A DNA stretch of 64,000 nt from Podarcis cretensis. Taxonomy: Eukaryota. The translations under genes and the position numbers were made by a program. The stretch spans positions 26,970,001-27,034,000 of the forward strand of contig OX638152.1 of NCBI GenBank assembly GCA_951804945.1, written 5' to 3'. The notes under the pieces were generated by a model. That model did not search any database. It saw only the letters and a list, made by a program, of their open reading frames with translations, and was not told the DNA's origin. Shown piece after piece: positions 1-57,236 of the stretch; the first letter of the stretch is position 1; every line of letters starts with the position of its first letter.

Positions 1-1739
1 AATGAACTATGTCTCATAGCCTAAGAGTTAAAATTTAACTCTATACTTAAAAATCTACCAGAATTTAATTCTTTTCTCTGACTTCTAATATTTATCTTCA
101 CATTTTCAATTATTCTCAACCATTGGGGCCATAGCTGTATAAGACATAAGACAGTGATAGCTAAAACCGTTCCAGGTTTTGCAACTCTTGAGTGAATCGC
201 CCCCACTCCAATGCCTCATATTGCCAAATGCTGAGCAGCATAACACCATAGCATGGATTAGTAACTAATCAAGAGTTGATCAGCATGTTTCCCCTTTTTC
301 ACGTTGGTGTTTTACTGCTTCCTCTTTTCAGTTGTGTATATGCCAATTGTACCCCAGAATATAGGTAATACAAGCATGTTAGAGTTCTATCCCCCCCTTG
401 GCATGCATGTAGGACTGTTTCTGGAAATGTGTTCAATCATGTCAACCCCTCACATGCAGTCTGAAGTGGCAAGACCAGGCACATTTTACCCCTATTTCTT
501 GTGAGAACAAGGTCGCAATATTAGCACTACTTATCCAGTTCTGTTGTTGGTTGTTTAGTCATTAACTACGAAGGTTGCTAAATTGGGCCATGTTATCACT
601 TTATCCAGTTTTAAGCTGAGTATTGGTTTTTCTACAGTTTTTGGGCTTCCAGCTTAATCATAGCCAATGAGGTTAATCCAAGGCATAATTATTGCTAGTT
701 GAAAATTTCCCCATCTTTCATTGATACATACTTGTTACTGAATAAATATGGACTACGCTGAAATTGCCAGACGCAAGGCAAATCCAGTTTCTCATTTTAT
801 CTGTTTCTAAAACCATTAGTCACTGTTGGGACAAAACCAAGAAACAAGTGACCATCATGTGAAAAGATCCATGCAACTGGACACTCAGTTCCCAGTCTCA
901 ATCTTGCCAAATATACATTTAATCAGGTTAGGCTATTCCTGGTTGAATAATAAATGCATCCAGATATTGCAAGGGGGAGGAATGAGCTACCACATTCATT
1001 CATTTTCCTGTTTTTCAGATCAAAATTGCCCTCCAGGGTGTGTTTCCCTTTTTGGACGATTATGCAGCTCTGGATGCTGTGAGTGATTTTGAGCTGAAAA
1101 ATAAGTAGAAGGGAAAGAGTTAGGCAGTTCTTCTCCAGCCACTACTTACTAAAAATTGATTGAGCCTTGGAAGAGACATATATAATTGAGTCCTTGCTTT
1201 GAACAGAGTTGGCTTTATGGAAAAAAATCTTCAGGAGATCTGAATTGCTGCTTAAGTGCTTGCATAGCTGGTAATCTACACTCTTATCAAGATCTGCATA
1301 AAACTAGTTGGACACATACATTAGGTATTGGTAAAGGCATGGTTTCTTGTCCAACTTAGTCATGTTCTTTAAGTTTAGTTTGACAAATGTAGATACGATT
1401 TCTTTTGGCATTCACCTGTTTTATTTGCACGAAAGTGTGTGTATATATATTTAAAAATCTTATCTTCTGTTTTTTGAAAATGAACTGTTTCAGTCGACAT
1501 GCTTCATATGCACACGCTTGTCATATAAGCAATGGTGATTTCAGTGTTCTGGAAAGAACCCCATTTAGAACAGGTTGGATGAAATTTCATTATTAGTTTA
1601 ATATTCCTGTGGATGTTGTCTTCTGACCTTACTTAAATATTCAGAAAACAATCTCATATCTTTTTGCTCTGGGTAATGTTCTTACCTCTTGATGGTTCTT
1701 TAATTATCTTTGTTGATACTGAACTTTGTGCAGCACACT

Positions 1740-1880
1740 TCTGAGATTTTACAATGGGTTGTTCATGCAGAGATTGGATGGCCATCTACCATGGATGCTT
1801 TAATTGAGTTTGCTGCATTACAGGGCGTTGGACTAGATGACCTTTGGCATCCTTTCCAACTCTACAATTCTTTGATTCTC
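1740..1880 (+). mobile_element. Degraded CR1 3' end
   Basis: ttggactagatgacc...ttccaactctacaattctttgattct. Confidence 0.6.
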
Positions 1881-3795
1881 TGTGTGGGGAGAGGTGAACT
1901 AAACAAGTAGATATTGGATTCAAGCATCCATGAGATCTCTGTTTTGGAATTAATATGTCTTCAATGAGGAGCGTAAGCTAAGGTCTGCTTCCAATCTGTT
2001 CCTGTAAAAAAATAATGAGAAGTAATTTTATCATGAGTCCATCCTAGGATAACTACATTGCAAGTATTTTGTATGGGTAGTTGTTCTCCAACTTCATTGG
2101 AGCGTGTGGGGAAGACACCCCTGGTTTAGAATAATTGTGAGACAAGAATTTTCCATGGGTATTTTGAATGGAATGGAATATATACTGGAGGAGCAAGCAG
2201 TACATCTATATCCAGCTAATTTTCTTGATGAGCCACTTAACTGAGCAATGGACAGTAAACCAGCTGTTCAGCTTCAATGTTTTAAAAGTTATCTGCTAGA
2301 AAACTTTATTGCTGCATTTAGTAGTAGGCACTGCACCTTAGGGCCAGCTTTAACCCAATGTCTGACTTCTGCTGTAGCTTACTGAATACTTATTTTGATG
2401 AGCAGGAAGCTTCTCTAGTGACATGAGTTTATGGGTCATTAAGTAAGTGCTTGCTTATTATATACAGCTCAGAGTTCATAATTTTATACTGTCTGAAAAC
2501 TCAGCAGGGCTTTCTTCACGACAGCAAGGATACAGCTTGTAAATAAGGATAGTTGCATTTCATAGTAAACCTTTGAGAGCGTATTGTGTGTGTGTGTTTC
2601 TGAATTGTTGAGTAATCACTGTTCTTGGAATTACTTTTATTACTTCATATTTACTTTGATAGGCAAGATGATACCTTAATTTTATAAACACGTCTGGGAT
2701 TTGAATGTACACCTTCAAAGCTTAAAATTAAAAGTATTTCATTATCACCTGTGTGTACCAGTAAAAACAGTTGTAATAAGAGATTATATGCCTTTCTTTG
2801 TGACCAACTCTTTGCGACTAAATATGTTAACTTGACATGGACAACCTTTCAAGGAAAAATTGTCTATCTCCTTTTGAGACATTTATGCCAGAACTTCCAA
2901 GGTTTCTCTTTTGAACAGTTGGATTGTATTTAATGAAATCTTACTCAGTGTAGACCCACTGAATTTACTGGGCTTAAGTTAGTCAAATCTACTGATTTCA
3001 GTGGGCTTACTCTGCCTATATTTGTTCATTTACAACCCATTATTTCCAAACCCAGTCCTTTCAGTCCTCTGGAATCTGTTCATAAATTCAGGTGTAAGAA
3101 TTTAGTATCCTGGTTGGAGGTATGTAGTAGGCAAAACTTTTGGTTTGACCTAGCACTACATATTTCAAACAAGTCTTAGTTTATTTGAAGTGATATAGAT
3201 GTGACTTTTCTAATGAAATGTCAGAAATATTAGGACCAAACTGTACAAGCCAGCTTGTTCTGCAATCCTATTGGATTTTCCTGGGAGTGAGTCCTATTAA
3301 ATTCCGTGGGACTTACGGTATTTCTGAGTAAATATGCACAGGATTGCACTGCGAGTCAAGGTGGAATCTAACTGGTGTCCCCAATTGGGAAGTGGAGGGA
3401 AAGTGATATTGTCTTCCTACTGCTCCCCATGCTACCCTGTTCTGGAGTGTTTCCCCCATCTCTCTGGCACTGATGTTTTATGGGTGCTGCGGGGGGGGGG
3501 GAATGCCTCCCTTTCTTTTACATTAGTAGGGGTATCTGTCTGCAGGATCAAAAGTTCCTCAGTTAAGTGCAAGGGCACCAACTGGAATCCACTCCAAACT
3601 ATTTTGGCTTGTTGACTCCTCTCAACTTCCTTTTCCAAGCCACGGCAAGTCAGATGACCAGAGTCAGAAATTTTACTTGCAAATTGTTTCCTATTCCACC
3701 AATCAAACCAAATATATGTTCTCATCTAGTTCTAGTTTGAGTTTCAGACTAAGGGATGTTGGGAGTGCCCTGGTTTTTTTCCTTCTTTTCCATAG

Positions 3796-3957
3796 CCAAG
3801 GAAGTATCGACTGGGGATGCTGGAGGAGAGAATAGTTCCGGTGGGATCAAAGGCAAGAAAATCAAAGAACACTATTGGCTGCTTGGCTGACAGGTGTAAA
3901 ACAGGAGTACCCATCAATATGGTTTGGTGGAACAGAGTCACAGAAAACAATTTACAG
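3796..3957 (+). CDS. PAN3: PAN3 cassette exon (human exon 5 equivalent, 54 aa, Pan3L-specific)
   Basis: ttttccatag|CCA...TTACAG|gtaaaa; 162 nt, phase 0/0; translates PRKYRLGMLEERIVPVGSKARKSKNTIGCLADRCKTGVPINMVWWNRVTENNLQ, matching the recalled human PAN3 segment. Confidence 0.95.
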
Positions 3958-5225
3958 GTAAAATTACTTTTTTCTAGTCACTTTAATTAATTTTGGCTAC
4001 TATTTTTATTTTTTCAAAAATGCTGAAGTTAGATACATATGATGGGCAGAAATTTGGCCGAAATCTTCACAGGTCAAATGTACAAATGACAACAAAAGTG
4101 ACTATCTAATAAACTACACACTTCTCAACTAATGTTCTGTATCATCTAGTTTGGGTGGCAAGAGTAATCTATTTTAAGAAAAGACATTAGAAGTTGAAAC
4201 TTATTTTCTTTGAAATAGCTGAAATAATTTGAACAGTATTTAGACCCTCCAGATGTTGCTAGACTGCAGCTCCTGTTATCGCTAAACATAGGCTGTGCTG
4301 GCTGGGGCTGTGAAAAGTTGAGAGTCCATCAACATCTGGAGAACCGCAGATGTTTCAGAGAGCAATCGTAGTGCAAAACTATGTTATCTAGCCCACAGAA
4401 GAAAACTCACTCAGCATCTAGTGACTTAAATTGCCTTTGGTTATCTTTGACGCTACTGTGAGTAGCCCTGTGATTAGCACCCTAGGGACTTTCAAAGGGC
4501 ATTATTGCTATATGTTGTGTTGAGGCTCTAGATGGGTACTTGTTCCAGTGGAATAGAGAGGCACACTCAACCTCTAAGATAAAAACAGACTGAGACAAGA
4601 GTAGTTCACAGAATTAGCATGAGACTGGGAAGAATGGTCACCCAGTGAATTACCCCCCACTTTCTTACAACTCTTGTTTGCTTCTGCTGTATATGGGAAC
4701 AATAGCATTTTTACTGTTCTTTGTGTAAATCATACTAATAGTTTTCTTGTGTAGTGCCAGGTAGTTAATGTAGCTTGTAGGCTATATTGTTGCACAAGTC
4801 AGAGGCGTTACAGAGGATGTTTTCCCCTTTAGGACTTGACTTACTCAGTGTTTGCTTTGGCTGATCTTAGGGTTAGAATGACCTGATTTCAGTTAAACTG
4901 TGATTTGAAGTTAAGTGTGTCTTTGGTTTCACATCGGAAAAGTCATACAAAGAGAGAGAGAGAATGAACTCAAGCTGATTAACTTAGTGTTGCTGTTGTG
5001 GTGGCGGTGTTTGTCAGTAGTTGAACTTAAGTATCCAAGAAGGAAGAATGGTTTACAGCATTCCATATTGTACATTATATAGAGAAGTCACAATGCATGT
5101 GCAAAGGGTACACGCTAAGTAGGTTGCCGAACTGAAAGGTTTTGTAGAAAAATGTGGCCTCTTCAAGTTTGTATTGTCCTCCCCCCCCCCCCCCGTCTAG
5201 TAACCTGTGTTTCTCAGTGCGTGTG

Positions 5226-5260
5226 CACACACACACACACACACACCTATATACACACAC
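5226..5260. repeat. (CA)n microsatellite
   Basis: Direct inspection. Confidence 0.85.
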
Positions 5261-5314
5261 AGATTGCATCCTTGGTTATTTTATTATATGTACACCACAT
5301 TATCTGCTGCTTTT

Positions 5315-5392
5315 ATGGAAATCATGGAAATTTTACTTCTCTATTCCACCGAAGAGCTCAACGTTGTGCGCTCCCCGCGCCCCTCTAAAAGA
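5315..5392 (+). CDS. PAN3: Candidate alternative first coding exon of PAN3
   Basis: ATG-initiated 26 codons MEIMEILLLYSTEELNVVRSPRPSKR ending at AGA|gtaagt donor, phase 0, compatible with exon 11903; locally CpG-retaining. Confidence 0.5.
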
Positions 5393-6485
5393 GTAAGTTT
5401 GCCTGAGAGAATGTCACAACTGTTTTTAGTTGCTAGGTTTATGAATATTGAAAAGAACCAGATTGATGTACATAAACTAAGCACGTTTGCCTTGTTTGTA
5501 TGGATGTTGTACTTCAGTTCTTGCACATCATGTATGATTTAATGGAATTTGCAGCATTAAATCGCTGCGTTGTGGTATAATACACCACTTGCAGCAACAT
5601 CTGCAGTAATTGTAGATTTGGCCTGTACATTCTGCAAATCTCTGTTTTATACATGTTGGTCCCTTAACATGTTTCCATTGCAGCTTGTAAAACAAAGATG
5701 TAGGGTCTCATTGTTAGAACCCAGAGCCATTGCCAAAGGACCAGGCTTCAGCATCAGCATAGCAGCAGTGCTGTTTCAGTACAGAAGTGGGGATAAAAGT
5801 CCCCCCAAGGCAAGAATGATTTGACTTAGGAGAATCTCAAGCTGATATGGCTCTTACAGCCATTTAGACTACAGTAGGTGGCCTAACTTGCCCGTCCTCT
5901 CCCTCATGTTCACCTCCATTCTCTTTATCTGCAGCACAAATGAGCCAGGAAAGGGTGTGTGTACATTGTGTGAATTGCAAGATCTGCAGCCAGTGGATGA
6001 GAATCCAGCCCACTATCTCATGCTACTGAGCTCTTTTAATTGTCGTACTTCTAACTAATTTCACTATATTGTAGAGGTGGTTGATTTGTGGCCAGTCTGT
6101 AACCCTCCCGAGGATTCTGATACTGGAATTAGCCTTATACTGGGATTCTGAGAATCTTAGTGAGGTGGCAAAGCTGATGTTTATGATGTCTGTTATAATA
6201 CATTTTGGCCTTATTCTGTAAACGAGACATAAAAGTCATGATCTGAGGCATAATGGGGTCACATTGTGACCGTTGTGTTTTGAGTTTTTTAACTATCCAT
6301 GTTGATCTCTTCTCAATATAAACTATTCTAGAAAGGACCATGACTTGGTGTTTCATAAGGTCAGTTAAAAAAGGTCATGCATGTGCCATTAACTAGGTTT
6401 TGATCAAGCAGAGTTTGTAATAAGACACATGGTTTCTTGCTGCTCTGTAAATTTAAATAATTTGTTAGTATAAACCTAACATGTA

Positions 6486-6695
6486 GATAAATAGGGACCG
6501 CTTACCAGCGGGAAGGTAAACGGCGTTTCCGTGTGCGGCTCTGGCTCGCCAGAGCAGCGATGTCACGCTGGCCACGTGACCCGGAAGTGTCTCCGGACAG
6601 CGCTGGCCCCTGGCCTCTTAAGTGAGATGGGCGCACAACCCCAGAGTCTGTCAAGACTGGCCCATACGGGCAGGGGTACCTTTACCTTTACCTTT
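6486..6695 (+). mobile_element. Sauria SINE (Squam1), 5'-truncated
   Basis: Body ggtaaacggcgtttcc...ggccacgtgacccgga, (ACCTTT)n tail, 9-bp TSD TAACATGTA at 6477-6485 and 6696-6704. Confidence 0.85.
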
Positions 6696-6830
6696 TAACA
6701 TGTACTAAAGTTAAAAAGGACCAAGCAGATTCCAGAAGTGTAGTTGTGTTAGTCTGTTATGATGCCACAGTCTCTTGACCTTCAAGGCACCGTAACATTC
6801 TTTGCTGAATCTTGAGAAATTCAGAAAAAC

Positions 6831-7977
6831 GGGGGGCCACTAGGGGGCGCATTGGAAGATGGCCGACAATACCATCTCTCCGACCCACACGGGGTAATTA
6901 AGAGGCTGTTATGGGAGTAGGCAGCCTCCCTTGTTGCCCCAAGGAAATGGGGAACACTGCCCTTGCCTGCTGTGCCCATAAATCACCCCCTAATTCGAAA
7001 GAAGGGGGTGAGGGCCCTAGGCAGAATGCCCCCGTGTGGACCTTGGCTCTCCTGGATGCTGTCTCTGATCACGCACTAGTTGCAGCAATTTGGAATAATT
7101 AATTACAAAAGAAGCAAATGCACATATTTCAAGTGAAGAAGGGGAGTGAAGTCTGCTAATTTAAGTGACCTCTGCGAAAGAAGACGACGGGCTGGAGAAA
7201 CAGGAATATTTTACGATGAAGATACACCAAAGGCGGGGTATGTTGACAACGGGGCTGAATGGGGAGGGGAACCTTTTTTACTTTCCTTCTATGTGATTTA
7301 CAAGAACCCCTCCTCATTAGAACCAACGGTTGAACTGACCCAAGCAGGATGATTAAGGTCTGTGTGGAGATAAACTTTAACCAAAAGTATGCTTTATGGA
7401 GACCGAGAAGCAATAAGAGCTTTTGGGAATGGCGCAGCAATTAATTCGGAGTCGCCATCTTGCCAAAGGATTTATAGCCAGGAGGAAGAACGGATTTGTT
7501 TTCAGACTGCATTCCTAGTGAATCTCCTCAGAGGTTTTGAGAAAGGAGGCAGATTGGTGAAGATTAATGACGCTAAGACTGTTTTGATGTATGGAAGTGA
7601 TGTTATATGGAAAACGTCTGGATATGGCTACTGGATAAAAAAAAAAATATCCATGCAGGATTACAAACTGTTCTAACCAGCTTGCGGAGACTATCAGAGG
7701 TCACAAAGAGAAAGGAAAAATATATGAAAATAACAACAAGAGATGTGGAAAAATAATAAGAAAGGACTGGATAGTACTGTGAACATCATAAGGTTAGATT
7801 TGTGGACATTAAAACAGCAGTAAGAAGCAAGAAGTTGATTGGATCCCTTCGGAACTTGAAATATGGGTACCCCCAACAAAAAATTAAAATTCGGCTGTGT
7901 AATTTGGAATTTATGTAATTTGGTTTGATTTGATGTGATTGGTCGGTTAATAAAAAATTATTCTTAAAAAAAAAAGA
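6831..7977 (+). mobile_element. Non-autonomous L1-mobilised retroelement, ~1.15 kb
   Basis: 17-bp TSD GAGAAATTCAGAAAAAC (6814-6830 and 7978-7994); G-run 5' end; AATAAA plus poly(A) 3' end; no long ORF. Confidence 0.85.
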
Positions 7978-8873
7978 GAGAAATTCAGAAAAACACTTCC
8001 AGGATATTTCAGTTTTTTCCTGTATTTTAGAGTCTCATTTCAATTAAGCATTCAGATGTGTACATGATGACAGATTTGGCCCTTGTTTGCTAAATTGTTT
8101 ACTCTTCCATCTAAAGAAGTATGTTGTGGCCCTTAGTTGGAATTTGTGAATGTACTAGTTTGTTCCTGAACAGTTACAGCTTTGAGTTTTCCCCTTTTGT
8201 TGCTTCCTTAAAAAGGAAAGGCAATTCTAGAAAAGCTATTTGAATTTATTCTTCTAGACCATGAATGAAGAACCCAAGGTCTGTAGACAGTAAAAGACTC
8301 TTACACATCATTTCTGTGTAACCACTTGCAACCAGCTACAACATGTTATCTGTTTATTTGGTATCTCTCCCTCTTCCCTGGTCCAGCTGCAGCCCATCTT
8401 CAGTGAGGATGAGAATGTTGTACCTTAAGAAGATACAGAAGATGCTTGCCTTAAGGCTGTGTGTTGTGGGAGGAAGATGCTAGTAATAGACCTGACAATA
8501 GAAGCAGAGCCTGAGGATCATAGTGCTTGTTTGAGAAAACCTACGTTGTGGGGAAAGGTTTTGTGCCTGAGTTCTGGCAGAAAGGGGAGAAACAATGTCT
8601 GTCTGCTTTGAAGAAAATGTGTACATGTCTGTTTTAAGGAAGAGGGAGAATGTTTATTGCTGTGATAGGTGCATACATTGATTTATGTAGAATATATTCA
8701 GGTATTTGTTGAGATTCCCTCAGGGTCCCTTCCAACTCTGCAATTTTATGATTCAATGTGGAAAAAGGAAATGGGAGTAGTGTAATTTTTAACATGTGTG
8801 AAGACAGTTGGCTAATCAGCATTTTTATACTATGTGAACAACTTAGCTTTATATTTTTCATTAAGCTGCATAT

Positions 8874-8956
8874 GTTGTTGTTTAGTTGTTTAGTTGTGTC
8901 CGACTCTTCGCGACCCCATGGACCAGAGCACGCCAGGCACTCCTGTCTTCCACTGC
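8874..8956 (-). mobile_element. Bov-B/RTE LINE 3' end fragment
   Basis: Reverse complement reads ...catggggtcgcgaagagtcggacacaactaaacaactaaacaacaac; flanked by a CTGCATAT direct repeat. Confidence 0.8.
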
Positions 8957-11902
8957 ATATATATTCTGCTAAATAAGTAAAAATAAAATTGGCAATTTGG
9001 ACTTTAAATGCTTGTGTTAACTGTCCTATTTATATCCTGTACTTGAGATTTTATTAATGGTATAAAGATGTAAAATGGGGACCTATGCATTCATTTGAAT
9101 CAAAGAGATAGTGAACAAAATATTTGTTCTTGATTGAATCAACAGCCAACTTGCCGATTTTTTAATTTATAAAAAAACCAGAGAAGATATTCACTAATTA
9201 ATTAACCAGATCAAACTAAAATGAAATCTTGTTTATGAGCAAAACCCTTGTTTATGAATACTGCTTTTGTCTTAGAAGCCAAGTCTCCTACCTAGAACTC
9301 TTTTTTCTCCTTCGGAAAATTGCCTTGGATGTGAAGGGTGACCTTAACATTAGCTGTAATACAACCACTTTGAATTTCCTCCCACCACTTTCATGTATAT
9401 CTTTGGCAGACTATCTGGTATTCCAGCAGGGTTATCTCTCCCCCTTTATTGAAGAATTATCACACCAATCTAAAAACCATATATAAAAAAAGCAAAAAGA
9501 AAAATTGTGATAGCGCTCATTTAACACGAATGGAAAGAGTAAATACTAAATGACATAAGTACATTGGGTAAGACAGATCCATGAGCACAATCACCAGATT
9601 TAAAATACACTCAAGCACAAGTAGGGGTGAAGTGAATTTTAAACTTTATTATTCTGCTAATGAATAAAAATGCTCAATTTAGCTATATCTTGGTCATTTT
9701 ACTGTTTCCCCTCTCTGACTCTAATTATGCTAAGCTTTTGTTAGCTAACTAATGACTAACCATACTGTGATTAATAGATCTATTATCATTTCTCTGACAT
9801 CTGGTAGTATTGTATCTTTTACATAGCCAGTAGAACAACCAGTGGCCCATCGAACTTTTTTGACAGTTTAATGTTGGAAGTGTGGTGCTTAGTTGGTTGA
9901 TAGGGTCAAAGGATACCCTAAATTTATCAGGCAGCAGGTTAACTCTGTCCAGGCCATCTTAGGCACTGACTGAAGACACTCTTTACCACAGACAAAGCTG
10001 AACCCAGGAGTACACACAGACCAGGAACATAGTCCTTTAGGGGAAGTGCAGCCCATCCAGAACAGGTCTCTTTGCTCAAGTGAACCACCTAAACCTAGAA
10101 CTTCTGTTTATTGGCCTGCATCTGTCATGTGATTCTTTCTTTTGCTTTACTAATTCCAGGCACTGGATAGAAGAGGCACTGCCGCTTTCTGCTTTCACAG
10201 GAGGAAGTGCCTGTTCTGAAATGATGCTTGCTATGAAATGTGTACGCATCATTTAAAAATCGTGTGATTTCTTCAGAATTACTTTATGACCATTAAAATA
10301 TATGCAGATTTTATATTTACATGCCTTAAGGGAACTGTTTCTCCCGGTGGCTTAAACAAGTTTGTCCTGTTGTGATGGATTTATTGTGGTTTTTCTCTTG
10401 TGTAAGCAGACCTTTGTCATATTTAACAGAAAGGCAGCATCTACATGTTCTGAATACTGAATTGATTTAATAGGTGTATGATCAACCAAGATGTCTTTAA
10501 TTGGATGATAGCACTAATTAATATCAATGCAGAGTTTATCTCTCAACTCCAAAAACATGAGGGCAAAGTCAAAAATGTAAGTGAAGAATTTGCCACTTAT
10601 TTGCTATATGCTAATATAGGAGAGGGGAATTGGTTCTGGCCAGTGGGCTGGATCCAGAATTCCCCCACTCTTTGTGGGCTACTTTGACAGATGGGTAGGG
10701 CTGCCTACCTGTCAGTCAGTCACCTGGTGTCTTCAGGTAATTCAACTTCAAAGGAAGAATCAGAGGTGTGTTCTAAATGCATTTCTGATACTTCCTTTCT
10801 TCTTTTGTAGCCATGCCTTGAATTGAAGCTGCAGAAGCAAAGGAAGAATCAGGAGCACCATCTAAATGTGCTCTGGATTCTTCCTTTCTGGTTGTAATTT
10901 GGTGTTTTTTGAATATGATGTCAGGTGATGGACAGGTGGATGTGGGCCAAATTGGGAGGCCTGGCAGGTACACTTAGGGGGCTTAAGGTTCCCCACTGTT
11001 GTGATAATGCTCTACATTTAGTTTGCTTGTTAATTTGTATTCTGCCTTTGGTCCAAGTTGCCCAGAACAGTGTTTAACTTCTCAACAACCTTGCAAGAAT
11101 TGTTCTACTGAGAAATTGTAATTTGTTCCAGTTAGCTTTCTGACAGCATCAGGTTTTGAATTAAAATTTCCCAAACACAACTTCAGCTTGTTTAAAAGTA
11201 TCTAATGTAGAAAAATCCTTAGAATTAAAGGGAAATGAACATCTTTAAAAATAATGGAAATGTGGAACAGAGATTAAAATGACTTCGCCAATAAAGTAGT
11301 TTTTGTAACTTAAAATAGGAAGCTTTCCTGAGAGCTGCTTACAATCTAGTTCTCTTAAGCATAATTGATTGCTCTAAGAGCTGGCCATTATTAGCATAAT
11401 TGATACTTCTAATTCCACTTATAAACTCATAGTATTCCCAGTTTCCTTGCCTCAAAATTTAGCTGAGCAGTGTGTAATGCAAACTTGTAGATTATGAAGG
11501 AAGTTGTATGGAAACAGAATTTCAAGTAGGTTTCCTATGACCAGGATTCAAGGAATGCATATCTCCAGTCAAGGGAGCTATACCTAGCTCATAGAATGTA
11601 CAACTCTTTTCTTTGGGCCACAGAAAGCCATGTCTTATTACAAACTCTATTAGGTTTTGAAAGGTTTGCAATGCAGTATGCTGAAAATTGTCGGGGGAGG
11701 GGGGGCAACAGTTCTAAAAAACCCGTTCAACTTTTGGAATTACCGGTAGTTGTAGTTCTTTGGATCCTGGCCTATGTCTGTTAGTTTTTAATAACCTACT
11801 AAAAATGTTTGCGTTCTTAACTTTAAACCCACTAATTTATTCAGTAAACAAATCTATTTTCACACTTAACACATACTCTGTTTTAAATTTTTTTTTAAAC
11901 AG

Positions 11903-12053
11903 ACACCAAATCCCGCGGCAAGCGAGTTTATTCCTAAAGGAGGATCAACCTCCCGACTCAGTAATATGTCACAGTCAAATATATCTGCCTTCTCTCAAGC
12001 CTTGTTCTCTCATCCTTCCATGGGAGGTCCTGCAAACGCTGGCCTAGCTCCAG
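11903..12053 (+). CDS. PAN3: PAN3 exon 6 (PAM2 motif TPNPAASEFIPKG)
   Basis: ttttaaacag|ACA...CCAG|gtaagc; TPNPAASEFIPKGGSTSRLSNMSQSNISAFSQALFSHPSMGGPANAGLAP. Confidence 0.96.
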
Positions 12054-44772: not shown

Positions 44773-44937
44773 CTACATAAACAGAAGTATAAAAATCATC
44801 AAACAGCTAGGAATAGTGTGAAAACAATGCCAAGCATTGGAGTCCACAAGCTCCCTAGGGAGTCCATTCCACTGTCAAACAACCATGACCTCCCTGAAAC
44901 ACCATAAACATGGTGTACACTGCATTTTGCCGCTTGC

Positions 44938-45043
44938 CTGCTTTACGTTTGCTTGAAGTAGATCTCCCAATCTCTCCACCAGCTCTGAGAATCTTGGCCT
45001 TTCCTTTGGATCCCCTTGCCAGCAATCCAGCATGATTTGATAT
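44938..45043 (-). CDS. FLT1: FLT1 exon 26 (end of kinase domain), GC donor
   Basis: ttggcag|A TAT...CAG|gcaagc; 106 nt; [35 protein letters not shown]. Confidence 0.93.
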
Positions 45044-47954
45044 CTGCCAAAAGCAAAAGACAGGGTATCATGAGCACTCCTTCTATGATTCACACTTGAA
45101 CAGCAGACTTCAGATCTGGGAGCCACCCTTAACCCAAACTTGCAACATGGGATCCATTTTTAAATTATTTTCTATACACAGCCACCTCCCTCCCTCTCTT
45201 TTCTCTCCTACTTTCTAACTTAAACTCTCTCTGATTTTATGCTCTTCAAACAAAATACAGACATGGTGAAAGTGCTACCGATACCCCCAGAGTTCAGAGC
45301 ATTTGTGTGCCTTGAAGAACCATCAGTGCCGTGCAGTAGAGAACACATCAAACCTCTTGTAGTATTTCAGGCATTTCTACAGAGTTAAGCTACAGAGTTA
45401 ACTGTTGCAGTTTTAATTATTTTTCATAGGATTTAGGTTCTGAGGAAAGTGAGGAAGAAGTCAGTACAGTTATGATGAAACTCCTGCTTTTTCATTCTTC
45501 CTCTTTCCACATGTGAACGATGAACAAATACTTAAACTCCTCACAAGGCTTCATAGCTTGGTCGCTCGCTTGCCAGACTAATCTCAGGGCTAGAAAAATC
45601 TCTGTTGCATTGAAATCTTAAAGCTTCTCTACTGCAGTGTAAGCCCATTATCTCTTGCCCTCCAAGCGCCAGTTACGCCATTGCTCACATCAGCCTTTCA
45701 TGTGTTTGAAAGGTTATCAAGCTGCTTCATCGACCTTCTCTGGCATAAGCCAAACACCAGGAGCCCTCAGCAGCCTGCATCACAGATCTCTGCCCCCAAT
45801 CTCTGATAACCTCTGCTGCTCTTCACTGATTCCTCTCTCAGTTGTTATCCACACACCCACCCCAAAAAGCACACGGGCCTCACAATAGCCAAACCAGAAA
45901 GTTTCATTCTGTAGTTTTGCCATCATAGGACTATTAGTAAATGTGATGGCTGAACAAAGTGATGCTGAAGCATCAAAGGGGGAACGGGATGTCGCACATC
46001 TCATGTGGTATCTCTTGAGAATCCTTGCTTTTATCTACCAACCTCCCCATCCCACTTAAGATAGGATTAATAGTGTGTGGGCAATGTCTGGTAGATTCTT
46101 AGATGCAGGGCTTAGGGATTTGTTTGTGTAACAAAGGAGGTTCAGTTGGCTTCAGACAGGAATTTTAACCCTCACACAACTTTTGGTTTCAGAGTTGAGG
46201 GCAATTGTTCTTGCAGTTATGACATTTATGAAGTTACATCTGACCCGGGGTGTGTGTACAAAAATGCAGAAAAAGAAATAAGAGGGAGGGAGGGCCCATA
46301 CTTTAGGAGGCAGTAGCCATGCATGTGCTACACATTTGAGATGCTGGGGAAGTTCTTCAAGCTCAGACTAGAAACCTAACTTGGGAGGCCTGTAAAAATC
46401 CCTTGCAAAAGAAGAGGTGAGTTTTACAAGCCCCAAATGTCTTCTCCTCCATAGATGAAAACGCCAGCAGGAGAAGACATCCCAGCTCCACCCAACTTCA
46501 CACCGGTATGTTTCTGTCATTTGCCTCACCTGTCCCTGCTGCCTTCCCCATACTCAAAGGTCGCTCCCATTTTTCCTTCCACACACACATATTCCCCTGT
46601 CCCACCAGTAGGGAGCAGCAACAGTAGGAAAAAATGGTAGGTCTCCCCCCCCCCCATCCTCTAACAGCATGGCAGGCAAGGAGAATTATTAGAGTTATGC
46701 TTCTTCCAAGGGCTCCTGCAAATGCACCTGGATTTAAATTAATCTGGAGCCTGTATTCACTGGGATTCCTAATACCACTGATCCTAATCATACTGCATTG
46801 CCATCCATTTGGATTTTTCTGGGAATATCCTGCATACAGGAGTCTGGTTTCATCAGCGGTTGGGAACCTCTAGTCCATGGGCTTCAAGATCAGCCCAGGA
46901 AGTCGTTTTTGGGGCACCACACCCATCTCTCTTAACCTGACGTCTTATATGACATCAAGCATGGGAAAGTTCAAGAGGCAGCTGCTGCAGGGCAAGGCAA
47001 AATGTAGCACTTCTCGAATTTGTCACTTTTTTCTTTTGCTCTGAACAGAGAAATGAAAAAAGCACAGAATTTTGCCTGCAAAAGAAGAAGGGGCAGTGCA
47101 TTCTGAGTGCACTCCCAATTCTTCCTTTAAAGCCACTGCTTGAATTCAAGCTGATGATGCAAAGGAACAAACCATCCTTTGCAGTCATGGCTTGCATTCA
47201 GTCCAGCTGCAAAGGAAGAATTGAGAATGCAACTGCAGATTGAAGCCACAATCACCTGATGTTATGTGATATCAGGTGAATGAGAGGATGTGTGGTCTGT
47301 GTGGGGCTGGCCACTTCCAGACCTGGCCCTCCGGCTTAATCCAATTTCCCAGCTCCAACTTACAGGATAACCACCCCAAAATCGTTTTGATGTCCTTTTC
47401 TGATATCATGTTCTCCGTGAATGTGTCTCCATAGGAATTACACAAAATCATTCTGATTGTGAGACGCACATAGGAACTAGTATACATCCTAAATTGTGTG
47501 TGTGTGGCCCTCCACCCTGTCTGGAGCTTAGGGGAGCTGAAGTCCAAAACATACGGAAGACCACAGCTTAGGCACCCCTGCCTTAAATCCCAAAACCCAG
47601 AGAGCAGATCTTAAGGATAAGTTCCTTTAAGGAAAAAGCTAGCAGAAGGCCTAACTAAAGCCAAAGCCAAATTATGTTTTTAAGGAAAGCAGAAAAAAAA
47701 TGATTCAGAAAGGGGTGACTTAAGAGTAGAGAATGTGGTGCTTAACCTTTTCACCACCTATAATTTCTCTGTTCCAGTTTCTCCCCCTTAAAACTAGGTT
47801 AACTATCTGCCTACAGCAGGGGTGGCTAAGCGGTGGCTCTCTAGATATTGTTGGACTACAACTCCCATCATCCCTGTCCATTGGTCTTGCTGGCTGGGGG
47901 TGATGGAGGTGGAATTCAACATCTAGATGGCCACAGATTAGCTATCCCAAATGA

Positions 47955-48091
47955 NNNNNNNNNNNNNNNNNNNNNNNNNNNNNNNNNNNNNNNNNNNNNN
48001 NNNNNNNNNNNNNNNNNNNNNNNNNNNNNNNNNNNNNNNNNNNNNNNNNNNNNNNNNNNNNNNNNNNNNNNNNNNNNNNNNNNNNNNNNNN
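47955..48091. other. Assembly gap (137 N)
   Basis: Run of N; abuts the tail side of a Squam3-type SINE. Confidence 1.
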
Positions 48092-48310
48092 CGCCTTTCA
48101 CTCCCTTTAAGGAGTCTCAAAGTGGCTAACATTCTCCTTTCCCTTCCTCCCCCACAACAAACACTCTGTGAGGTGAGTGGGGCTGAGAGACTTCAGAGAA
48201 GTGTGACTGGCCCAAGGTCACCCAGCAGCTGCATGTGGAGGAGCGGAGACGTGAACCCGGTTCACCAGATTACGAGACTACCGCTCTTAACCACTACACC
48301 ACACTGGCTC
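48092..48310 (-). mobile_element. tRNA-derived SINE (Squam3-type), tail lost in gap
   Basis: Near-identical to 22942-23192. Confidence 0.85.
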
Positions 48311-48548
48311 TCAAATGAAGACATTTGAAACCCTATGGCACGAAGAGCAACGGGGGAAAGGGTGATATCAAGCATAGAAGTAACAGGCTGGGAAGGTTTA
48401 TGCACCTCTTTCCCAAATCCTACTGTTCTAAATTCCCAAAGCACTTTTATCCTAATGAAGGTTGGTGGCATTTTGTTACATGTGCGCACTGTTTGGTTTG
48501 TCCCAAAGTAATGCATGCCAAAAATGATACTGTCCAAAGCACTCGTAC

Positions 48549-48648
48549 ATCTCTGGGGTTGCAAAATCTGGGGCTTTCATTCTTATGCCTTCTTTTAACT
48601 TGTTGAAAAAGTCTTCATCTATCTGAACACCTGGATAAGGAGATGCAC
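48549..48648 (-). CDS. FLT1: FLT1 exon 25
   Basis: ctttag|GT...GAGAT|gtacga; [33 protein letters not shown]. Confidence 0.95.
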
Positions 48649-50271
48649 CTAAAGGAGAAGAATTAAAAAACACACACTCTGAAATTGGAATGGAGAGAAT
48701 AACAAAGGAAACCACAGACACTTCTGACATGTGAACCTTTACAACATTTGCATCCTATTAGAGACTGAGCGTTTTCTAAATTGAGTTGCTAACCTGTGTG
48801 GCCTTCCAGAAGTTTTGGACTCCAACTCCCATCAGCCCCAGTCAGCATGGGACCTGGTAGCCCATCAACATCAAGAGGCCACAAGCCAGCCACCTTCCTG
48901 CTCTAAAGTAAGCCTGAGATCTATTTTGCTTCCCACCACTCTTCTGTTCTGTTTGGGTGATGGGCAATGAGTTCTGATGTAACATAGGGGCATACTATTT
49001 TCTATATTCTTTTCTTTTAGCTTAGCTTTTCAATTGTTCATCCTTTCTCAGGGTAGTAAGAGTTAATTATGAGGCAAGAGCAATCCCAGCAACAAGTACT
49101 AAACAACCAGAAGACTGTTTGTCTAAGGAACTGCATGCATGGACCAATTTCCTCTGCTGTTGTGTCTGTCTCTTCTACCATTCTTCTTTGATGAATGAAA
49201 TTGCTGCTTCCTTTGCAGGACAGATTTTGTATCCTGCATTTTTAAAAAAGATTATTATTATTATTATTGTCTTGCTCAGCATTTCCATCCTAGATGGCAT
49301 GCTCACCCAAAGATGATAATTTCAGTCTTTGTTTGCCTGTGAGCCCCATGGATTAGTATGAGGAGGAAGCAGCTGTGAATGGCAATGGCTTGGCACTGTG
49401 AGATCCAAGAGCTGATTCTGGTTGTGCTGCTGAAAGTTGCTTGTTTGTTTATTATTAAATTTGTATCTCACCCTTCCTCCCAAAGGAGCCCTGGGTGGCA
49501 AACAACAAGTGATAAAACAATAAGAACATCTTAGAACGTTTTGAAAAAAACAATTCCAGTACAGATGCAGACTGGGAAAGATCTCACAGACTTTATTGCT
49601 ATTATGGCCCGCACAGAAAAGTGCAGGAATGGGTAAGGTCTATCTAAAGAAATATTACCAAGATAGATAGATTATCTGACAACAATTTAAAAACCTCTCC
49701 TTTCATGTGTTCCCGTCATTGTTGAGACACATGGTTCGTAGTTTATTTGCTATTTATAAATAATTGCCATATTTTGTGTAGCATAATAAATACTGATTAA
49801 CAGATTAATACAGTACCACGGTTCTGATGTGAACAACAGTGAAGTCACTAGATCCTGAAAAGCACAAGGACCTCCTCTTGCCCACCCACACATTGAACAA
49901 AGTGGTTTTTTTCTCCCCTTTTCCAGTCAATACCCCAGTACTGCATCATAACCAGCCTTAGAATCTTCCATGCTGAAAGAGCAGCCTGCAGTGTGGCAAG
50001 GGAGGAGACAAGCTGCCTCTTAGAAGCCACACAGATAACAAGGGCTTACTGCATCATTGCCATTCCAAGGCCTCCTAGCCACTGCCTTTCTGCCTTTCTG
50101 GGTTCTGTAAAATGGGGTTAAGCATGTAGCAGGTGATTTTAGATTGCACAATATAAAAAAGTAGGGACTGGGAGAGAAGGTAGGACAATTTTGATGGGCC
50201 CCTTTACTGCCTGCTAGTTGCTGCCATTCAGGTAAAGAAAATATTCTGAGGTCTTGAGTTCTTGCTTTCTA

Positions 50272-51181
50272 CAGTGGTACCTCTGGTTGTGAGCCCTCGG
50301 GTTATGTTTTTTTCGGGTTATGAACGTTTTTAACCTGGAAGTGAGTGTTCCGAGCTCTCGGAGGCCTCCGCGAATGCCCGGAGCCAGGCCCCAACATCCG
50401 CAGGGCCTACGGAGGCTCTGCGATCGGCCTCCAGCCGCAAGAGCTTTCCGAGGCCTTCACAACTGCCCAGAACCAGGCCCCGACATCCTCAGGATGCCCA
50501 GCAGGTCGCACCCCAGCCCCAAAGCTAGGTAAGAAACACTTACCTAACGAAGACCAAGAGCAGTGAAACCGTTAAGAAAACAAAGATGAGCCTGGGCCGA
50601 AAAGCCCTTTACCAACCCTTGCCCCACCCCCAGCTGTAGCAAGATGGGTGGCACCTCGCCAGGTAAGCCCACCTACCCTGTGAGAGGGGGGGAGTGGAAG
50701 ATTTTGGGATTCTGCAAAGGATTTTGGGATTTGTTTATGTGAGTCTGCCCTGTGCCTTTGTCTCTGCTTTGCTCTTCGTTTGGGGGACTTCTGGGGACTC
50801 TGCCTTTTGTCATTGTTTTGGGGATCGTGTGGAGCCCAGTTCAGCTACTGGTTGATTGTGTGACTGCAGAAATGGATAAAATTCCCCCCATCCAAACAAT
50901 GACTATCATCAGTGCATGCAAGAAAAAATAAATGTTAATTTTTTTCATCTACAATACTGTCTTATTTATTTTATAGTACAGTACATTGATTATTGCCTTC
51001 ATTTTATGGATCAATGGTCTTGTTAGACAGTAAAATTCATGTTAAATTGCTGTTTTAGGGGGTGTTTTTCATCGTCTGGAACGGATCAATCCACTTTTCC
51101 ATTACTTTCAGTGGGAAAGTGCGCTTCAGGTTAAGAACAGACTTCTGGAACCAATTAAGTACTTAACCTGAGGCACCACTG
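50272..51181. mobile_element. Tigger/mariner-type non-autonomous transposon, 910 bp, with GC-rich internal segment
   Basis: TA|CAGTGGTACCTC...GAGGCACCACTG|TA. Confidence 0.8.
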
Positions 51182-51418
51182 TATATTCAAAACACATTGG
51201 TTTAACTTCTACTAAAATGTAAGCAGATCATAGCAAGCCCATTTCTGATATATAATATTTAAGCTGCAATCCTTAACACACTTAGGTAGGAGTAAGTCAC
51301 ATTGAACTTGTTGAAGATTACTTCAGAGTAGCATGTACAGGATTGCACTATTAACGATGAATTGGGTACTGTATCCAATTGATTTTGTTTTCAGAGATCT
51401 TAGGATAGAATCAATTCA

Positions 51419-51574
<156 letters not shown>

Positions 51575-51785
51575 TTACTTTTCAAGCAAAATGAAATTAG
51601 CTGTAGATAGCAATGTAAGTGTTTTACAGAGCTAGAATTATTGCTTTAGGCTGCACATGGAAGTTGCCTTCTGCTCACAGAAGGGCCAGAGTGGTGTTGT
51701 GCTAGAAAAATGAGATTAAATGCAGAGATGCAGTTTGTCTTGCACATACAGTACTCCACTCTGACTTTAGAGATCTGCCAGTTTC

Positions 51786-52519
51786 TTTCACCTCTGGTGG
51801 ACCTGCCCTAGAGTGAAGGCTTTCTGGGAAATGATATATAATGAGCTGAAAAAGGTATTCAAGTATACCTTTCCTAAGAAACCAGAGGCCTTCCTTCTGG
51901 GTATCGTCGGCCAGAGGGTGTTAAAGAAGGATCGAACATTTTTTATGTATGCAACAACAGCAGCAAGGATACTCGTCGCCAAGCACTGGAAAACCCAAGA
52001 TTTACCCACACTGGAAGAATGGCAGTTGCAACTGATAGATTATATGGAACTGGCTGAGATGACTGGCAGAATCCGAGACCTGGGAGAGGAGACGGTAGAA
52101 GAAGACTGGAAGGAATTCAAGACCTACCTACAGAAACATTGTAAATTGTATGAATGCTAAGAAGGATGCCAGATTGGAATGTAATTTGGCACCATTAAGC
52201 TAGATGAATTGAAGTATGAAGATAAGCTAAATTGAAGAAAAGATAAACTTTGGATAATTATCAGGCTAAATTTAAACTTTATAGATTTGAACAAAAGTTA
52301 TCTAAAAATAGAGATATAATATTGGAAAAATAGATAATAAGAATGGAAATAAGGGGATAAATTGCTGGTTAGATATTTATAAATCAGGAACGCAGGAGCG
52401 GGAGACGTGAGGGAGTCCAAAGAAGTTAAGAAAATATGTAATGATATGTGTTATTTTGTTTCTTTCTTTATTTGTATGGTAATCAAAAAATCTTTAATAA
52501 ATATCTTTAAAAAAAAAAA
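51786..52519 (+). mobile_element. Young 5'-truncated L1 (ORF2 C-terminus, 3'UTR, poly(A))
   Basis: Open frame FHLWWTCPRVKAFWEMI...AARILVAKHWK...W..F..Y to TAA 52160; AATAAA plus A-tail; 18-bp TSD TAGAGATCTGCCAGTTTC (51768-51785 and 52520-52537). Confidence 0.92.
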
Positions 52520-52994
52520 TAGAGATCTGCCAGTTTCAAGCCAGCCATCACAAATATAAGACTAGAAACTTGGTTTTCAAAAGCTGAGAGTCTCAGGAAG
52601 CTTGGTTGGGTGCCTAGTACCAATTATGTTCTTTTTCCCTGCACTTCTACAAAAGCTAAATACAGACAGCCCTGGATGCAGATAAGTCGGTATGCTGTGA
52701 TTTCCCCAGTATTAAAGAAATGTGCTTTGCATGTGCCTAAAGTTCCTTAATGCTGCTCATATATTCTTCCAGAACATTAAGATCTTTTTTTCAAAGGGGA
52801 AGAAAAGTTTTTTTTTAAAAAAAATAATTGGGTTTTATAAACAAGAATAATGTTATGCAAATAAATATACCAAGTTTTCTCATGTAATTTGTATACCACA
52901 AAAATAGCATAATAAATGTTGAAAAATATCTACAACATATGTTTCATTATTAGTGGCCAATGTATAAATTCTTGGTTTATGACTTGGTTTAAAC

Positions 52995-53130
52995 CAGGCA
53001 TGGCCAAACATGGCCCTCCACCTGTTTTGGGACTAGAGTTCCCATCATCTCTGACCACTGGTCCTGTTAGTTAGGGATGATGGGAGTTGTAGTCCCAAAA
53101 CAGCTGAAGGGCCAAGTTTGGCCATGCCTG
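52995..53130. mobile_element. Palindromic hAT-like MITE
   Basis: CAGGCATGGCCAAAC...GTTTGGCCATGCCTG. Confidence 0.82.
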
Positions 53131-53139
53131 GTTAAACAA

Positions 53140-53572
53140 TTTGGAAAAAGAAGAGGGGGGAAGAAAGGAGTGGGGTGAGGTGGTTATGCCTCTATTATTC
53201 TACTTAGTGTGTGTGAGGGGTTGTGCCAGCGTTACTTGTATGGGTTCTCTTACTATTCACTTGTTGTATTTCCTTGATGGTGAGAGAGGTTGGAGGGTGG
53301 CTTAGGGTGTGGTTGGTTGTCTTTGGTTGGCTGCAGTGAGAATTGTTTTTGTGTGTGAGCAGGGTATGAGTGTGTATTTTTGAATCAGGTTAGCCAAATT
53401 GATTTGTATGCTGTTGGGGGATTCTTGTTGTTGTCTTGTTGGGCTGTGTATGTGATAAAGGGGAACCAAACCGGGGTGAAGGCATCTTCTTCTATTTGTC
53501 CCCGTGTCAGTTTCAGTTTATTGGTTAGTTTTTCTAATAAGGATGTTTCCCATGCTATTTGGGAAGAAAAGT
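53140..53572 (-). mobile_element. L1-type LINE 3' fragment (second family)
   Basis: Minus frame QIAWETSLLEKLTNKLKLTRGQIEEDAFTPVWFPFITY...* resembles the L1 ORF2 C-terminus; C/A-rich 3'UTR. Confidence 0.7.
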
Positions 53573-53974
53573 TATTTCACACATTCCAGGGCTGAGTCCT
53601 AACAGTGCCAACAAATTCCTGAGCTAAACCAAAAGTTTCTGGGGGTAAATTATGATGAGCCATAGCTCAAATTAAGCCCCACTGCACCCCCAGTGAAGAA
53701 ACACAAACTTCTATTTCTTTTGCAAATAAAGTTTAAGCCTTTTTACTGGCGGGCCTAGCAAGGTTAGCCAAGAAACAAATATCAACATGTAAACTATTCA
53801 AAAAACAGAGCTGGCGGACATTTCCGAGCATTGTTGTGGAGGATGCAAACTGTCACAGTGCATACAACTCATCTGGACCGCTCATCTTCACATAAAAAAT
53901 GTACAATCACTTTCAGGGGCCTTTTAGAGTGCAGAGAATGTAAACATTTAGAAAACTCTTCCATGAGCTGTTCA

Positions 53975-54139
<165 letters not shown>

Positions 54140-55254
54140 CTACAAGAAAACATTAAACAATCTCATTGCTGATCCCGATAGGATTCCAAAACACAAAGCT
54201 GAATCTTTTCCATGTCCTTTTAAAAAGCATTAATATACATGCTCATGTATTTAATAGCTCAGTTTACATTTTCTTCTGGAAGTTGCCTAAAGTTTACATA
54301 GAACTACCATAATGAAATGCAAAGGTGCTTTCCAAAGAAACAAAGAATCTAAACATGTGTACCTTTAATCTGTTGAGTTCTACCAAGGGAGAAGTCAGAC
54401 TGCTTTAGGCTTTACAGGTAATGCATTTGGGAATACATAATAAAATCCAAAATCAATTAGATAAGCAGCTATTTTTCCTACCATATGAGAATTTATAGTG
54501 GAGTCCACCTTAACCAGTCCTGTTTTCAGAGAGCCAAACTGAACTGAACAGAAATCTGGACCAAATCTTTAATTTTTCCCAAACCAGAAACTTGTATTTG
54601 TAGAAACACATTTATTTTCAAAAGGAGAGCTGAGATTTGAAGATACTGTGAACATTAAATCATGTTTCTAGAGATGAAGTACTATGACTGCTGGGTTGGG
54701 GTATTGTTTAGGGGGTTTTGGTGGTGGTGGGGTTGCTGTTAATGATATGAATTGTTTATATCTTTATTTTTAGAACTTTTTATGATTTATGTCAAAATGG
54801 TTCAGTTTGGTTGTGTACTTTAGATGTGTTTTAGTTAGCTATGACTACTTTTATTATGTTTGTGATTATGCAAATATTTTTGTTGTACGCCGCCTTGAGC
54901 ACACTTTTTACTATGGAAAGGCGGCATGCAAATAAAATGCTGATGATGACATGCAACAGTCACTGAAAAATGTCCCACACAGTGACCCTAACCATGTGGA
55001 AAGGTGGTCACCTGTAGCCTCTGACCACACCATTACTCCTAGCAGTGACATCGATGGAAATCCAAAGGAGTGGCTGTGTGCTCTCCTTTACAGAAAACAG
55101 TTGTCTAGCTGAAGGGCTACCCAGTTCACATCCGATTTAAAGATGAAGAACTGTAAGCAGCCAGTGTCTGGACAGCAAACTAAGAAGGGGCGTGCACACC
55201 TGTCTGGCAAGAGGAACTACATTTCTATTTAAATTATAATAATTCTTTGCAACT

Positions 55255-55408
55255 GGACTCCTTCATCTGCCCCAGCTGCAACAAAATATGTCTCTCCCAT
55301 ATTGGCCTCTACAACCACAGCAGGCACTGCAACCTTCCAATAGTTTGACTTCACTCTCAAAGGCACACTCCTCCATTGTCTCCCGAGGCAGGCGGATGCC
55401 AACAACAG
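55255..55408 (+). mobile_element. RTE LINE 3' end
   Basis: FICPSCNKICLSHIGLYNHSRHC zinc-finger-like terminus, then ccattgtctcccgag..ggatgccaacaac. Confidence 0.75.
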
Positions 55409-56154
55409 TTTCCATCTGATAAACTGGCATTTGTGCATTTCTCACGAAGGCATATCCTCTTTTCTCTCCCTCTCTTTATTTGGTGATGTGGTAAGTGGCC
55501 CCGCTAGTGGTGACAAGGCATACTTAAGCATGTTGTCAGAGGCTGCAGATGACCATATTCCTGCGTGTTTATTAGTGGCTATTTATGTGGTTCCTGATCA
55601 CCTGGATCTAACCCCAGGCAGAGGAATAACTGCAATGGAAGAACAAGCCTTTTGTTTCTAGTCTGCTGTGTACGCTATGGAGACATGAATAAACATGCAT
55701 TTATTTATAGAGAGAGCCTCAAAAAGAAAACTGCCCTTCCTTCCTTTAGGAGTTCTTGGGAACAAAATTACCATTGAATCACAGAAACCAGTTTGTCTTC
55801 ACCATGATGCAATTTCCCTGATGCAGTTAGTCACAAGGAGGATGAGGAGCCGCTGGTTACTTCAGCAGCCTTGCCCTATGCTTCCTTTGTGCAGCCAGTT
55901 TCCCAGAGTGCAGGGAAAACCCCTCTTTCTCAACAAAGTTTCAGGGAGTAACACAAACATTTTGTATTTAACAAAACAGAAACATGATTCTTAGAGGCGT
56001 TGTTACATCACAAACTTAAACTGGTATAAGAACTACCTTTGGTAGTGCTGTGAAAGGGGTTTGGATTCCATGTATTCATTTAGGCCAGGTGGCTAGGGTA
56101 GGCCATATGCTAGGTGGCTAACAACCAGCAGTTAAAATTGTGTAAAACACTTAA

Positions 56155-56158
<4 letters not shown>

Positions 56159-56209
<51 letters not shown>
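56159..56209. repeat. (AT)n(GT)n microsatellite
   Basis: Direct inspection. Confidence 0.9.
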
Positions 56210-56494
56210 GTGGACATATGCTTCTAATGTATATATGTCTTTAGGGTCACTGGCTCTCCACACCCCCCAATAAGGTCTCTGTCTTAACAAACAGCCAACA
56301 ATTTAAAAGATGGATTTTACAAAGGTGACAGAAAAGCTGGACTTGTGGAATTTCTGTCTGTCATACTAGAGGGCAATATGGGGATAACATTCCCATCCTA
56401 TTATACAGTAGGCTGTTGGAAGCATAATGCATGCAAAACATTACCCCATTATTATTAATCTTCCGGAGGGGAAATGCACAGGAGGTAAACTAAC

Positions 56495-56592
56495 CTTTTG
56501 AGATGATAAGAACTCCATCCCTCTGGCCACCTGAAAACTGTAAGAAATTAGATCTTCCATGGTGAGGGGCCACTTGTAAAATTCATCAGAAT
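56495..56592 (-). CDS. FLT1: FLT1 exon 22
   Basis: tttcag|AT...AAG|gttagt; [33 protein letters not shown]. Confidence 0.96.
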
Positions 56593-56935
56593 CTGAAATC
56601 AATTCAGCGCATACGAGGTTAACATGACTTTGTGCTGCCCGCAGTACAATGGAGTGCCTGAAACTTAGTTTACTAGTGAGAACAAAAACAATTATTGGGA
56701 GGTGCTGAGCACTTCCCCAAGGTTAAGGAAGAGACCCTAGAAACAGTCACACATCTTCCTGTCCGATTGAGTAACGTTGTAAATAAGCTTATTTTAAACC
56801 ATCTTTTCTTGGATCTGAGTATCTCCCAAGGATGTTTATGAGGGTGATAAACGGGGAAAGAAAATGTCAAAGATGCAGATCACGTGGTAAAAATATCCAC
56901 AGACTGCATAGAAAGAGGAAGGAATTAATACGTAC

Positions 56936-57095
56936 CCTCCTCTTCTTCTTCCACATCACTTAAACTTTTATCTTCCTGAAATCCAGAGCTTGCTAAGCTC
57001 TCTCGACTTGGGATGCTCTCCAGCCTTTTTTTCTTACCACCAATGGGCTCCACATCCTTCTCCTCTGTCACCAGCTCTCCTTGAATGGAGGCATC
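56936..57095 (-). CDS. FLT1: FLT1 exon 21 (kinase insert)
   Basis: ctaaag|GAT...GAGG|gtacgt; DASIQGELVTEEKDVEPIGGKKKRLESIPSRESLASSGFQEDKSLSDVEEEEE. Confidence 0.95.
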
Positions 57096-57236
57096 CTTTA
57101 GACAAAAAGAGGGGGGTGGGAGAGGAAAAAATTGGCACAAGATGGAACAGAAGATATTCCAGCCAAAGTTAAGCACTTTTGAGCCCAACTGATTTCAGCA
57201 GGAAAGTTAAGCATGTGCTTTTATCCCTCCGAGGTA

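Follow-up and report, generated by a model that had tools for sequence, protein, structure and literature searches.

PAN3 locus and the candidate tract in intron 5

The window analysed here is a 64,000-nucleotide stretch of Podarcis cretensis DNA (GCA_951804945.1, contig OX638152.1, positions 26,970,001 to 27,034,000 of the forward strand), and on its + strand it carries PAN3 from exon 5 through exon 19, exons 1-4 being further upstream. Exon 1 sits in a CpG island 22 kb before the window begins; it matches a Lacerta PAN3 record at 100% identity over 151 residues and contains the CCCH zinc finger (residues 45-65). Exon 6, the PAM2 exon, is 100% identical to lacertid PAN3 records (Podarcis, Lacerta). 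At ~44900-57200, exons of a receptor tyrosine kinase lie on the - strand, tail-to-tail with PAN3; going by gene order, this gene is probably FLT1. Records from lizards, snakes, tuatara, turtles and crocodilians carry the Pan3L exon (exon 5) and none of the amphibian records examined do, so the exon is amniote-wide and extends beyond the "warm-blooded vertebrates" given in PMC5558910. The features on which the analysis turns are these:

3796..3957, + strand: PAN3 exon 5, the Pan3L-specific exon (54 codons, phase 0)
5178..5203, + strand: C-rich tract with TAG, possible phase-0 acceptor (exon start 5201, 192 bases, first codon TAA)
5226..5261, no strand assigned: CA microsatellite (genome matches)
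5288..5314, + strand: earlier in-frame ATG and frame extension (weak context; frame of 35 codons)
5315..5392, + strand: candidate coding tract, 26 codons (ATG 5315, second ATG 5324, 5 CpGs)
5393..5398, + strand: donor motif GTAAGT, phase 0 (exon-side AGA weak)
10478..10582, + strand: second ATG frame, 33 codons, ending at a phase-0 GTAAGT (no CpG, no strong Kozak; internal chance control)
11903..12052, + strand: PAN3 exon 6, the PAM2 exon (phase-0 start)

A first-pass annotation had proposed that intron 5 hides an alternative first exon that splices in frame onto the PAM2 exon, and its description of the letters largely holds. The tract does lie in intron 5, between the Pan3L exon (which ends at 3957) and exon 6 (which starts at 11903); the 26-codon frame runs from ATG 5315 to 5392, where it meets AGA/GTAAGT (5390-5398) in phase 0, and exon 6 starts in that same phase. 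An in-frame ATG, an open frame and a donor whose phase suits the following exon are what an internal first coding exon needs, and a second site in intron 5, at 10478-10582, has all three as well. The ATG at 5324 has the strong Kozak context ascribed to it (A at -3, G at +4), which ATG 5315 and ATG 5288 lack. The frame does not, as had been thought, first open at 5315, since the earlier in-frame ATG at 5288 lengthens it to 35 codons. ATGs 5315 and 5324 belong to a 9-base tandem near-duplicate (8/9 identical), so they are not independent signals.

CpG retention, another of the proposed features, is real: the tract has 5 CpGs in 78 bases, and 5 or more are found in 2.6% of the 78-base intronic windows of this gene. 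The excess is broader than the tract, with 14 CpGs in 4900-5600 versus 24 in 1-3700 and 18 in 8000-11800, a density about threefold that of the flanks though below island level; 5001-6000 is not a CpG island (GC 0.42, CpG o/e 0.31). The description of the tract as repeat-free stands for 5270-5420, which has a single match in the genome, and fails just upstream, where the CA microsatellite sits at 5226-5261. Across 4500-6100 only that microsatellite matches elsewhere (33/34 matches), so that these 1.6 kb are without interspersed repeats. Farther along intron 5, a young interspersed repeat of ~1.15 kb occupies 6831-7976 and has at least 39 other copies at 96-98% identity.

A threefold CpG excess over 700 bases in repeat-free surroundings, together with the neutral codon usage described below, would be compatible with a regulatory or non-coding element, such as a weak promoter or enhancer, whose CpGs are kept by low methylation and whose frame and donor are incidental or form part of an untranslated leader. 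Set against this, Rfam returned 0 families for 4000-11900, and we consider such an element very unlikely.

A possible acceptor upstream of the tract

Part of the case for an internal promoter had been that no phase-0 acceptor lies upstream. One does: a TAG at 5198-5200 behind a C run would begin an exon at 5201, and in a rough model this acceptor scores 7.6, above 12 of the 16 real PAN3 acceptors. An exon starting at 5201 would open with a stop, its first codon being TAA, and from another acceptor at 5218 the reading frame stops at 5386. The interval 5201-5392 therefore has an acceptor and a donor enclosing a premature stop, the arrangement of a poison cassette exon, in which acceptor 5201 (or 5218) and donor 5393 would place an extra 192 (or 175) bases after exon 4/5 and ahead of exon 6 and lead, through the early stop, to nonsense-mediated decay. 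The strength of the acceptor and the placement of the stops speak for this, but its pyrimidine tract is a C run, which makes a poor U2AF65 site, and the CA microsatellite would fall inside the putative exon. We rate a poison cassette as the least likely of the readings considered here, slightly below the non-coding element.

Comparison with chance expectation

Donors were scored with a rough matrix. On that scale donor 5393 scores 2.67, and 12 of the 16 real PAN3 donors score higher. Intron 5 holds 14 donors that score at least as well, of which two (5393 and 10577) end a phase-0 ATG frame of 26 or more codons; these two are also the only GTAAGT hexamers in the intron. As background we took both strands of 600 kb of adjacent, unmasked sequence, for a total of 1.128 Mb in 3 phases. 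An ATG frame of 20 or more codons ending at a donor of equal quality occurs there 790 times, or 1.84 per 7.9-kb intron per phase, and the bare combination of ATG frame and donor at 5315-5398 is thus ordinary, no more than chance would supply.

Adding a strong Kozak context reduces the count to 222 in 1.128 Mb (0.52 per intron length), and adding five CpGs reduces it to 15 (0.035), 1 of which lies in CpG-poor flanks (0.002). The exact GTAAGT hexamer ends such frames at 62 sites in 1.128 Mb; eight of these have a strong Kozak (0.019), and none of the eight has three or more CpGs. Applied to the 164 kb that surround PAN3, the requirement for Kozak plus CpGs leaves three sites, two at the true exon-1 region and the candidate tract itself. 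The full combination of features at 5315-5398 is therefore unusual, though the package was defined post hoc, the Kozak and CpG criteria having been chosen with the site already known. The CpG excess on its own is less distinctive, as 14 or more CpGs are found in 392 of 1620 background 700-base windows (24%; repeats and islands included).

Codon usage is neutral. The tract sits at the intronic median, with 54% of 6330 stop-free windows scoring as high, and 14 of 15 real exon pieces lie above that median. The remaining piece, from the Pan3L exon, also sits at the median and the tract offers just 25 codons, so the test is a weak one.

Taken together, these results tip the balance slightly toward a tract that resembles a start exon but goes unused. 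We lean, by a little, toward a short intronic open frame that ends by accident at a cryptic in-phase donor. All PAN3 messages would then come from the exon-1 CpG-island promoter and would enter exon 6 from exon 4 or exon 5. What is observed directly is the gene structure, the frame with its donor and phase, and the background rates; that the spliceosome skips 5393 is our inference, presumably for want of a transcript start just upstream and of an open in-phase acceptor to define an internal exon.

The main competing reading, which we consider less likely, has the tract serve as a genuine first coding exon inside the gene: transcripts would start from a weak promoter of restricted tissue range at ~5100-5300, splice from donor 5393 to exon 6 and be translated from ATG 5324 (or 5315/5288). 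The rarity of the joint features and the local CpG excess argue for it. Two of the five CpGs straddle codons and one lies in a CCG, positions at which selection on the protein would not keep them, and this would fit low methylation near a start site. Weighing on the other side are the post hoc choice of criteria, the ease with which background windows reach the same CpG count, the neutral codon usage, the modest donor and the promoter region, since a full TATA, GC or CAAT box was not found in 4700-5400.

Search of protein and sequence records

We gathered 448 proteins from PAN3 searches (best 120 of 292 and best 120 of 489), from cluster members and from a search of 50% representatives; 389 of them contain the PAM2-exon motif. 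The segment directly upstream of the PAM2 exon in these 389 is exon 5 in 188, exon 4 in 151, a bird cassette in 29, an archosaur/turtle intron-5 exon in 8 and something else in 13. A search of protein records for the candidate peptide, which had been suggested as a check, gave no match (0/389, 11 lacertid records among them, with the 90% clusters sampled in part), and this too counts against an internal first exon. The 11 lacertid records (895, 861, 841, 840, 822, 803, 687 aa) all reach the PAM2 exon through exon 4 or exon 5. From the 90% clusters of 852, 321, 291 and 160 members, at most 15 members each were among those listed; a 629-aa form, having 603 residues in common with the long forms, would be hidden in such large clusters, which makes the protein negatives weak.

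A 40-aa query against 90% representatives of 71-2000 aa returned 1 candidate and none that scored, the ESM Atlas gave no usable match to the candidate peptide, and Pfam has no family for the candidate frame; in the 5 proteins scanned with Pfam, the PAM2 family was reported for none. A 30-aa query against 1.84 billion 50% representatives returned one 2339-aa protein without a matched stretch, which we dismissed as noise. Matching the first ten codons with a degenerate pattern yielded 4 metagenome loci, all at 29-30% GC with a stop right after and no donor, which we set aside as chance. A sequencing-run search with 5255-5395 (9 sampled words) found no RNA among the 8 rows listed (6 holders, 2 studies), and we treat this as neutral evidence.

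Known counterparts of a finger-less PAN3

The tract had been put forward as a third class of PAN3 isoform, and as a class it is not new, because databases already list, for birds, crocodile and turtle, finger-less PAN3 models whose start lies in intron 5 and which retain the PAM2 exon:

XP_021141872.1: Columba livia, X6
XP_035758446.1: Egretta, X10
XP_047928801.1: Anser, X3
UniRef100_A0A7M4F3Q3: Crocodylus
XP_039389378.1: Mauremys, X11

As proposed for the candidate, the first exon of these forms (614-655 aa) lies in intron 5 and is spliced straight to the PAM2 exon, leaving out both the CCCH finger and the Pan3L segment. Their start peptide, however, is unrelated to the candidate's (scores 14-17, shuffle p 0.33-0.87), no match to it turned up in the lizard introns searched, and the forms themselves are database models. 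The archosaur/turtle exon is the start exon in 6 models and an internal cassette after exon 5 in 2 of the 8 records; it encodes 32-33 residues in birds and crocodile, with bird-crocodile identity of 24/32, and fewer in turtle. That a different exon of the same intron starts 6 bird, crocodile and turtle models suggests that such an architecture is tolerated, which lends some support to an internal first exon in the lizard. The archosaur exon is a better-supported zinc-finger-less PAN3 than the lizard tract.

Human PAN3 isoform 2 (575 aa; "Isoform 2" in UniRef, X10 in RefSeq) also begins at an internal first coding exon and has no zinc finger. It differs from the candidate in joining exon 7, so that the PAM2 exon is absent as well, and in its unrelated peptide; its first-exon peptide has no trace in the lizard window, and the candidate's phase-0 donor fits exon 6. 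The mammalian 575-aa form has a nearly invariant 21-residue start and a cluster of 52 members. In birds, a further cassette exon of 21 residues follows exon 4 and precedes exon 5/6; in 29 records it abuts the PAM2 exon, and the lizard stretches searched contain no match to it. When archosaur, turtle, mammalian, bird-cassette and cat exon peptides were compared with the lizard introns in six frames, the best scores were 20-41 and the expected intron did no better.

Pan3S and Pan3L resemble the proposed isoform in differing by the segment directly upstream of PAM2, but they arise by skipping or inclusion of exon 5 and not by an internal start (Chen et al. 2017, PMC5558910). Finger loss with retention of the rest has been seen elsewhere: a finger-less Chaetomium Pan3 splice variant is deposited (KJ657771), and once its finger is deleted, the yeast Pan2-Pan3 complex no longer prefers poly(A) and deadenylates slightly more slowly (Wolf et al. 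2014, PMC4158885). Human PAN3 delta-N278, a truncation that stops six residues ahead of the PAM2 exon (residue 285), is active with PAN2 (bioRxiv 10.1101/2025.09.27.678968). These forms are like the predicted product in losing the finger and keeping the rest, but they are a fungal variant or engineered, and they carry no added 26-residue start. By titles and abstract openings, we found no literature on a vertebrate internal-promoter PAN3 isoform; the isoform alignment in Fig. S1 of PMC5558910 may bear on this.

Predicted product and implications

If the exon were used, the consequences foreseen for the protein would follow: the CCCH finger of exon 1 would be lost, the Pan3L exon bypassed and the PAM2 exon kept. 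With exons 1-4 absent, the predicted product has 23, 26 or 35 new residues followed by 603, or 626-638 aa, and keeps PAM2, the pseudokinase and the C-terminal domain, without the finger or the Pan3L segment. PAN3 acts as a dimer and brings PAN2 to poly(A) by way of its zinc finger, PAM2 and pseudokinase region (PMC5558910, PMC4158885). To bind Pan2 it needs no more than its pseudokinase and C-terminal domains, and to bind PABP no more than its N-terminal domain (PMC5558910). A finger-less product, if real, would still form dimers and bind both PAN2 and PABP, with one of the three contacts that recruit the complex to poly(A) gone. It would probably be active and PABP-competent, as this domain sufficiency (PMC5558910), the finger-less yeast complex (PMC4158885) and the delta-N278 assays suggest; that human PAN3 lacking its 278 N-terminal residues is a working construct in PAN2 deadenylation assays (bioRxiv 10.1101/2025.09.27.678968) is a further point in favour of an internal first exon.

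The segment upstream of PAM2 alters the effect of PAN3 on PAN2 (PMC5558910, PMC4158885), and of the two isoforms Pan3S has the stronger affinity for PABP and stimulates Pan2 (Chen et al. 2017, PMC5558910). The first-pass annotation had pointed to a basic, Pan3S-like junction in the candidate, and it is a guess that basic residues before PAM2 set PABP affinity; in the sections consulted, PMC5558910 does not attribute the Pan3S/Pan3L difference to junction residues, and its discussion leaves the mode of action of the Pan3L segment open.

We think it rather unlikely, though worth entertaining, that lacertids have a specific internal PAN3 promoter in intron 5 that yields a zinc-finger-less, PAM2-bearing PAN3 with a new start of 23-35 residues. 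If real, the lizard tract would be one more finger-less PAN3 of the kind modelled in birds, crocodiles and mammals, and a natural PAN3 that lacks the finger and bears PAM2 would test the weighting of the poly(A) contacts in cells. Such a form would be easier to study in birds and crocodile, where the intron-5 exon is conserved. Were this start real, beside the unrelated archosaur/turtle intron-5 exon and the mammalian isoform-2 exon, three amniote lineages would have separately evolved internal starts that remove the N-terminal RNA-binding finger of PAN3, which would point to an unstudied tuning of PAN2-PAN3 through mixed PAN3 dimers.
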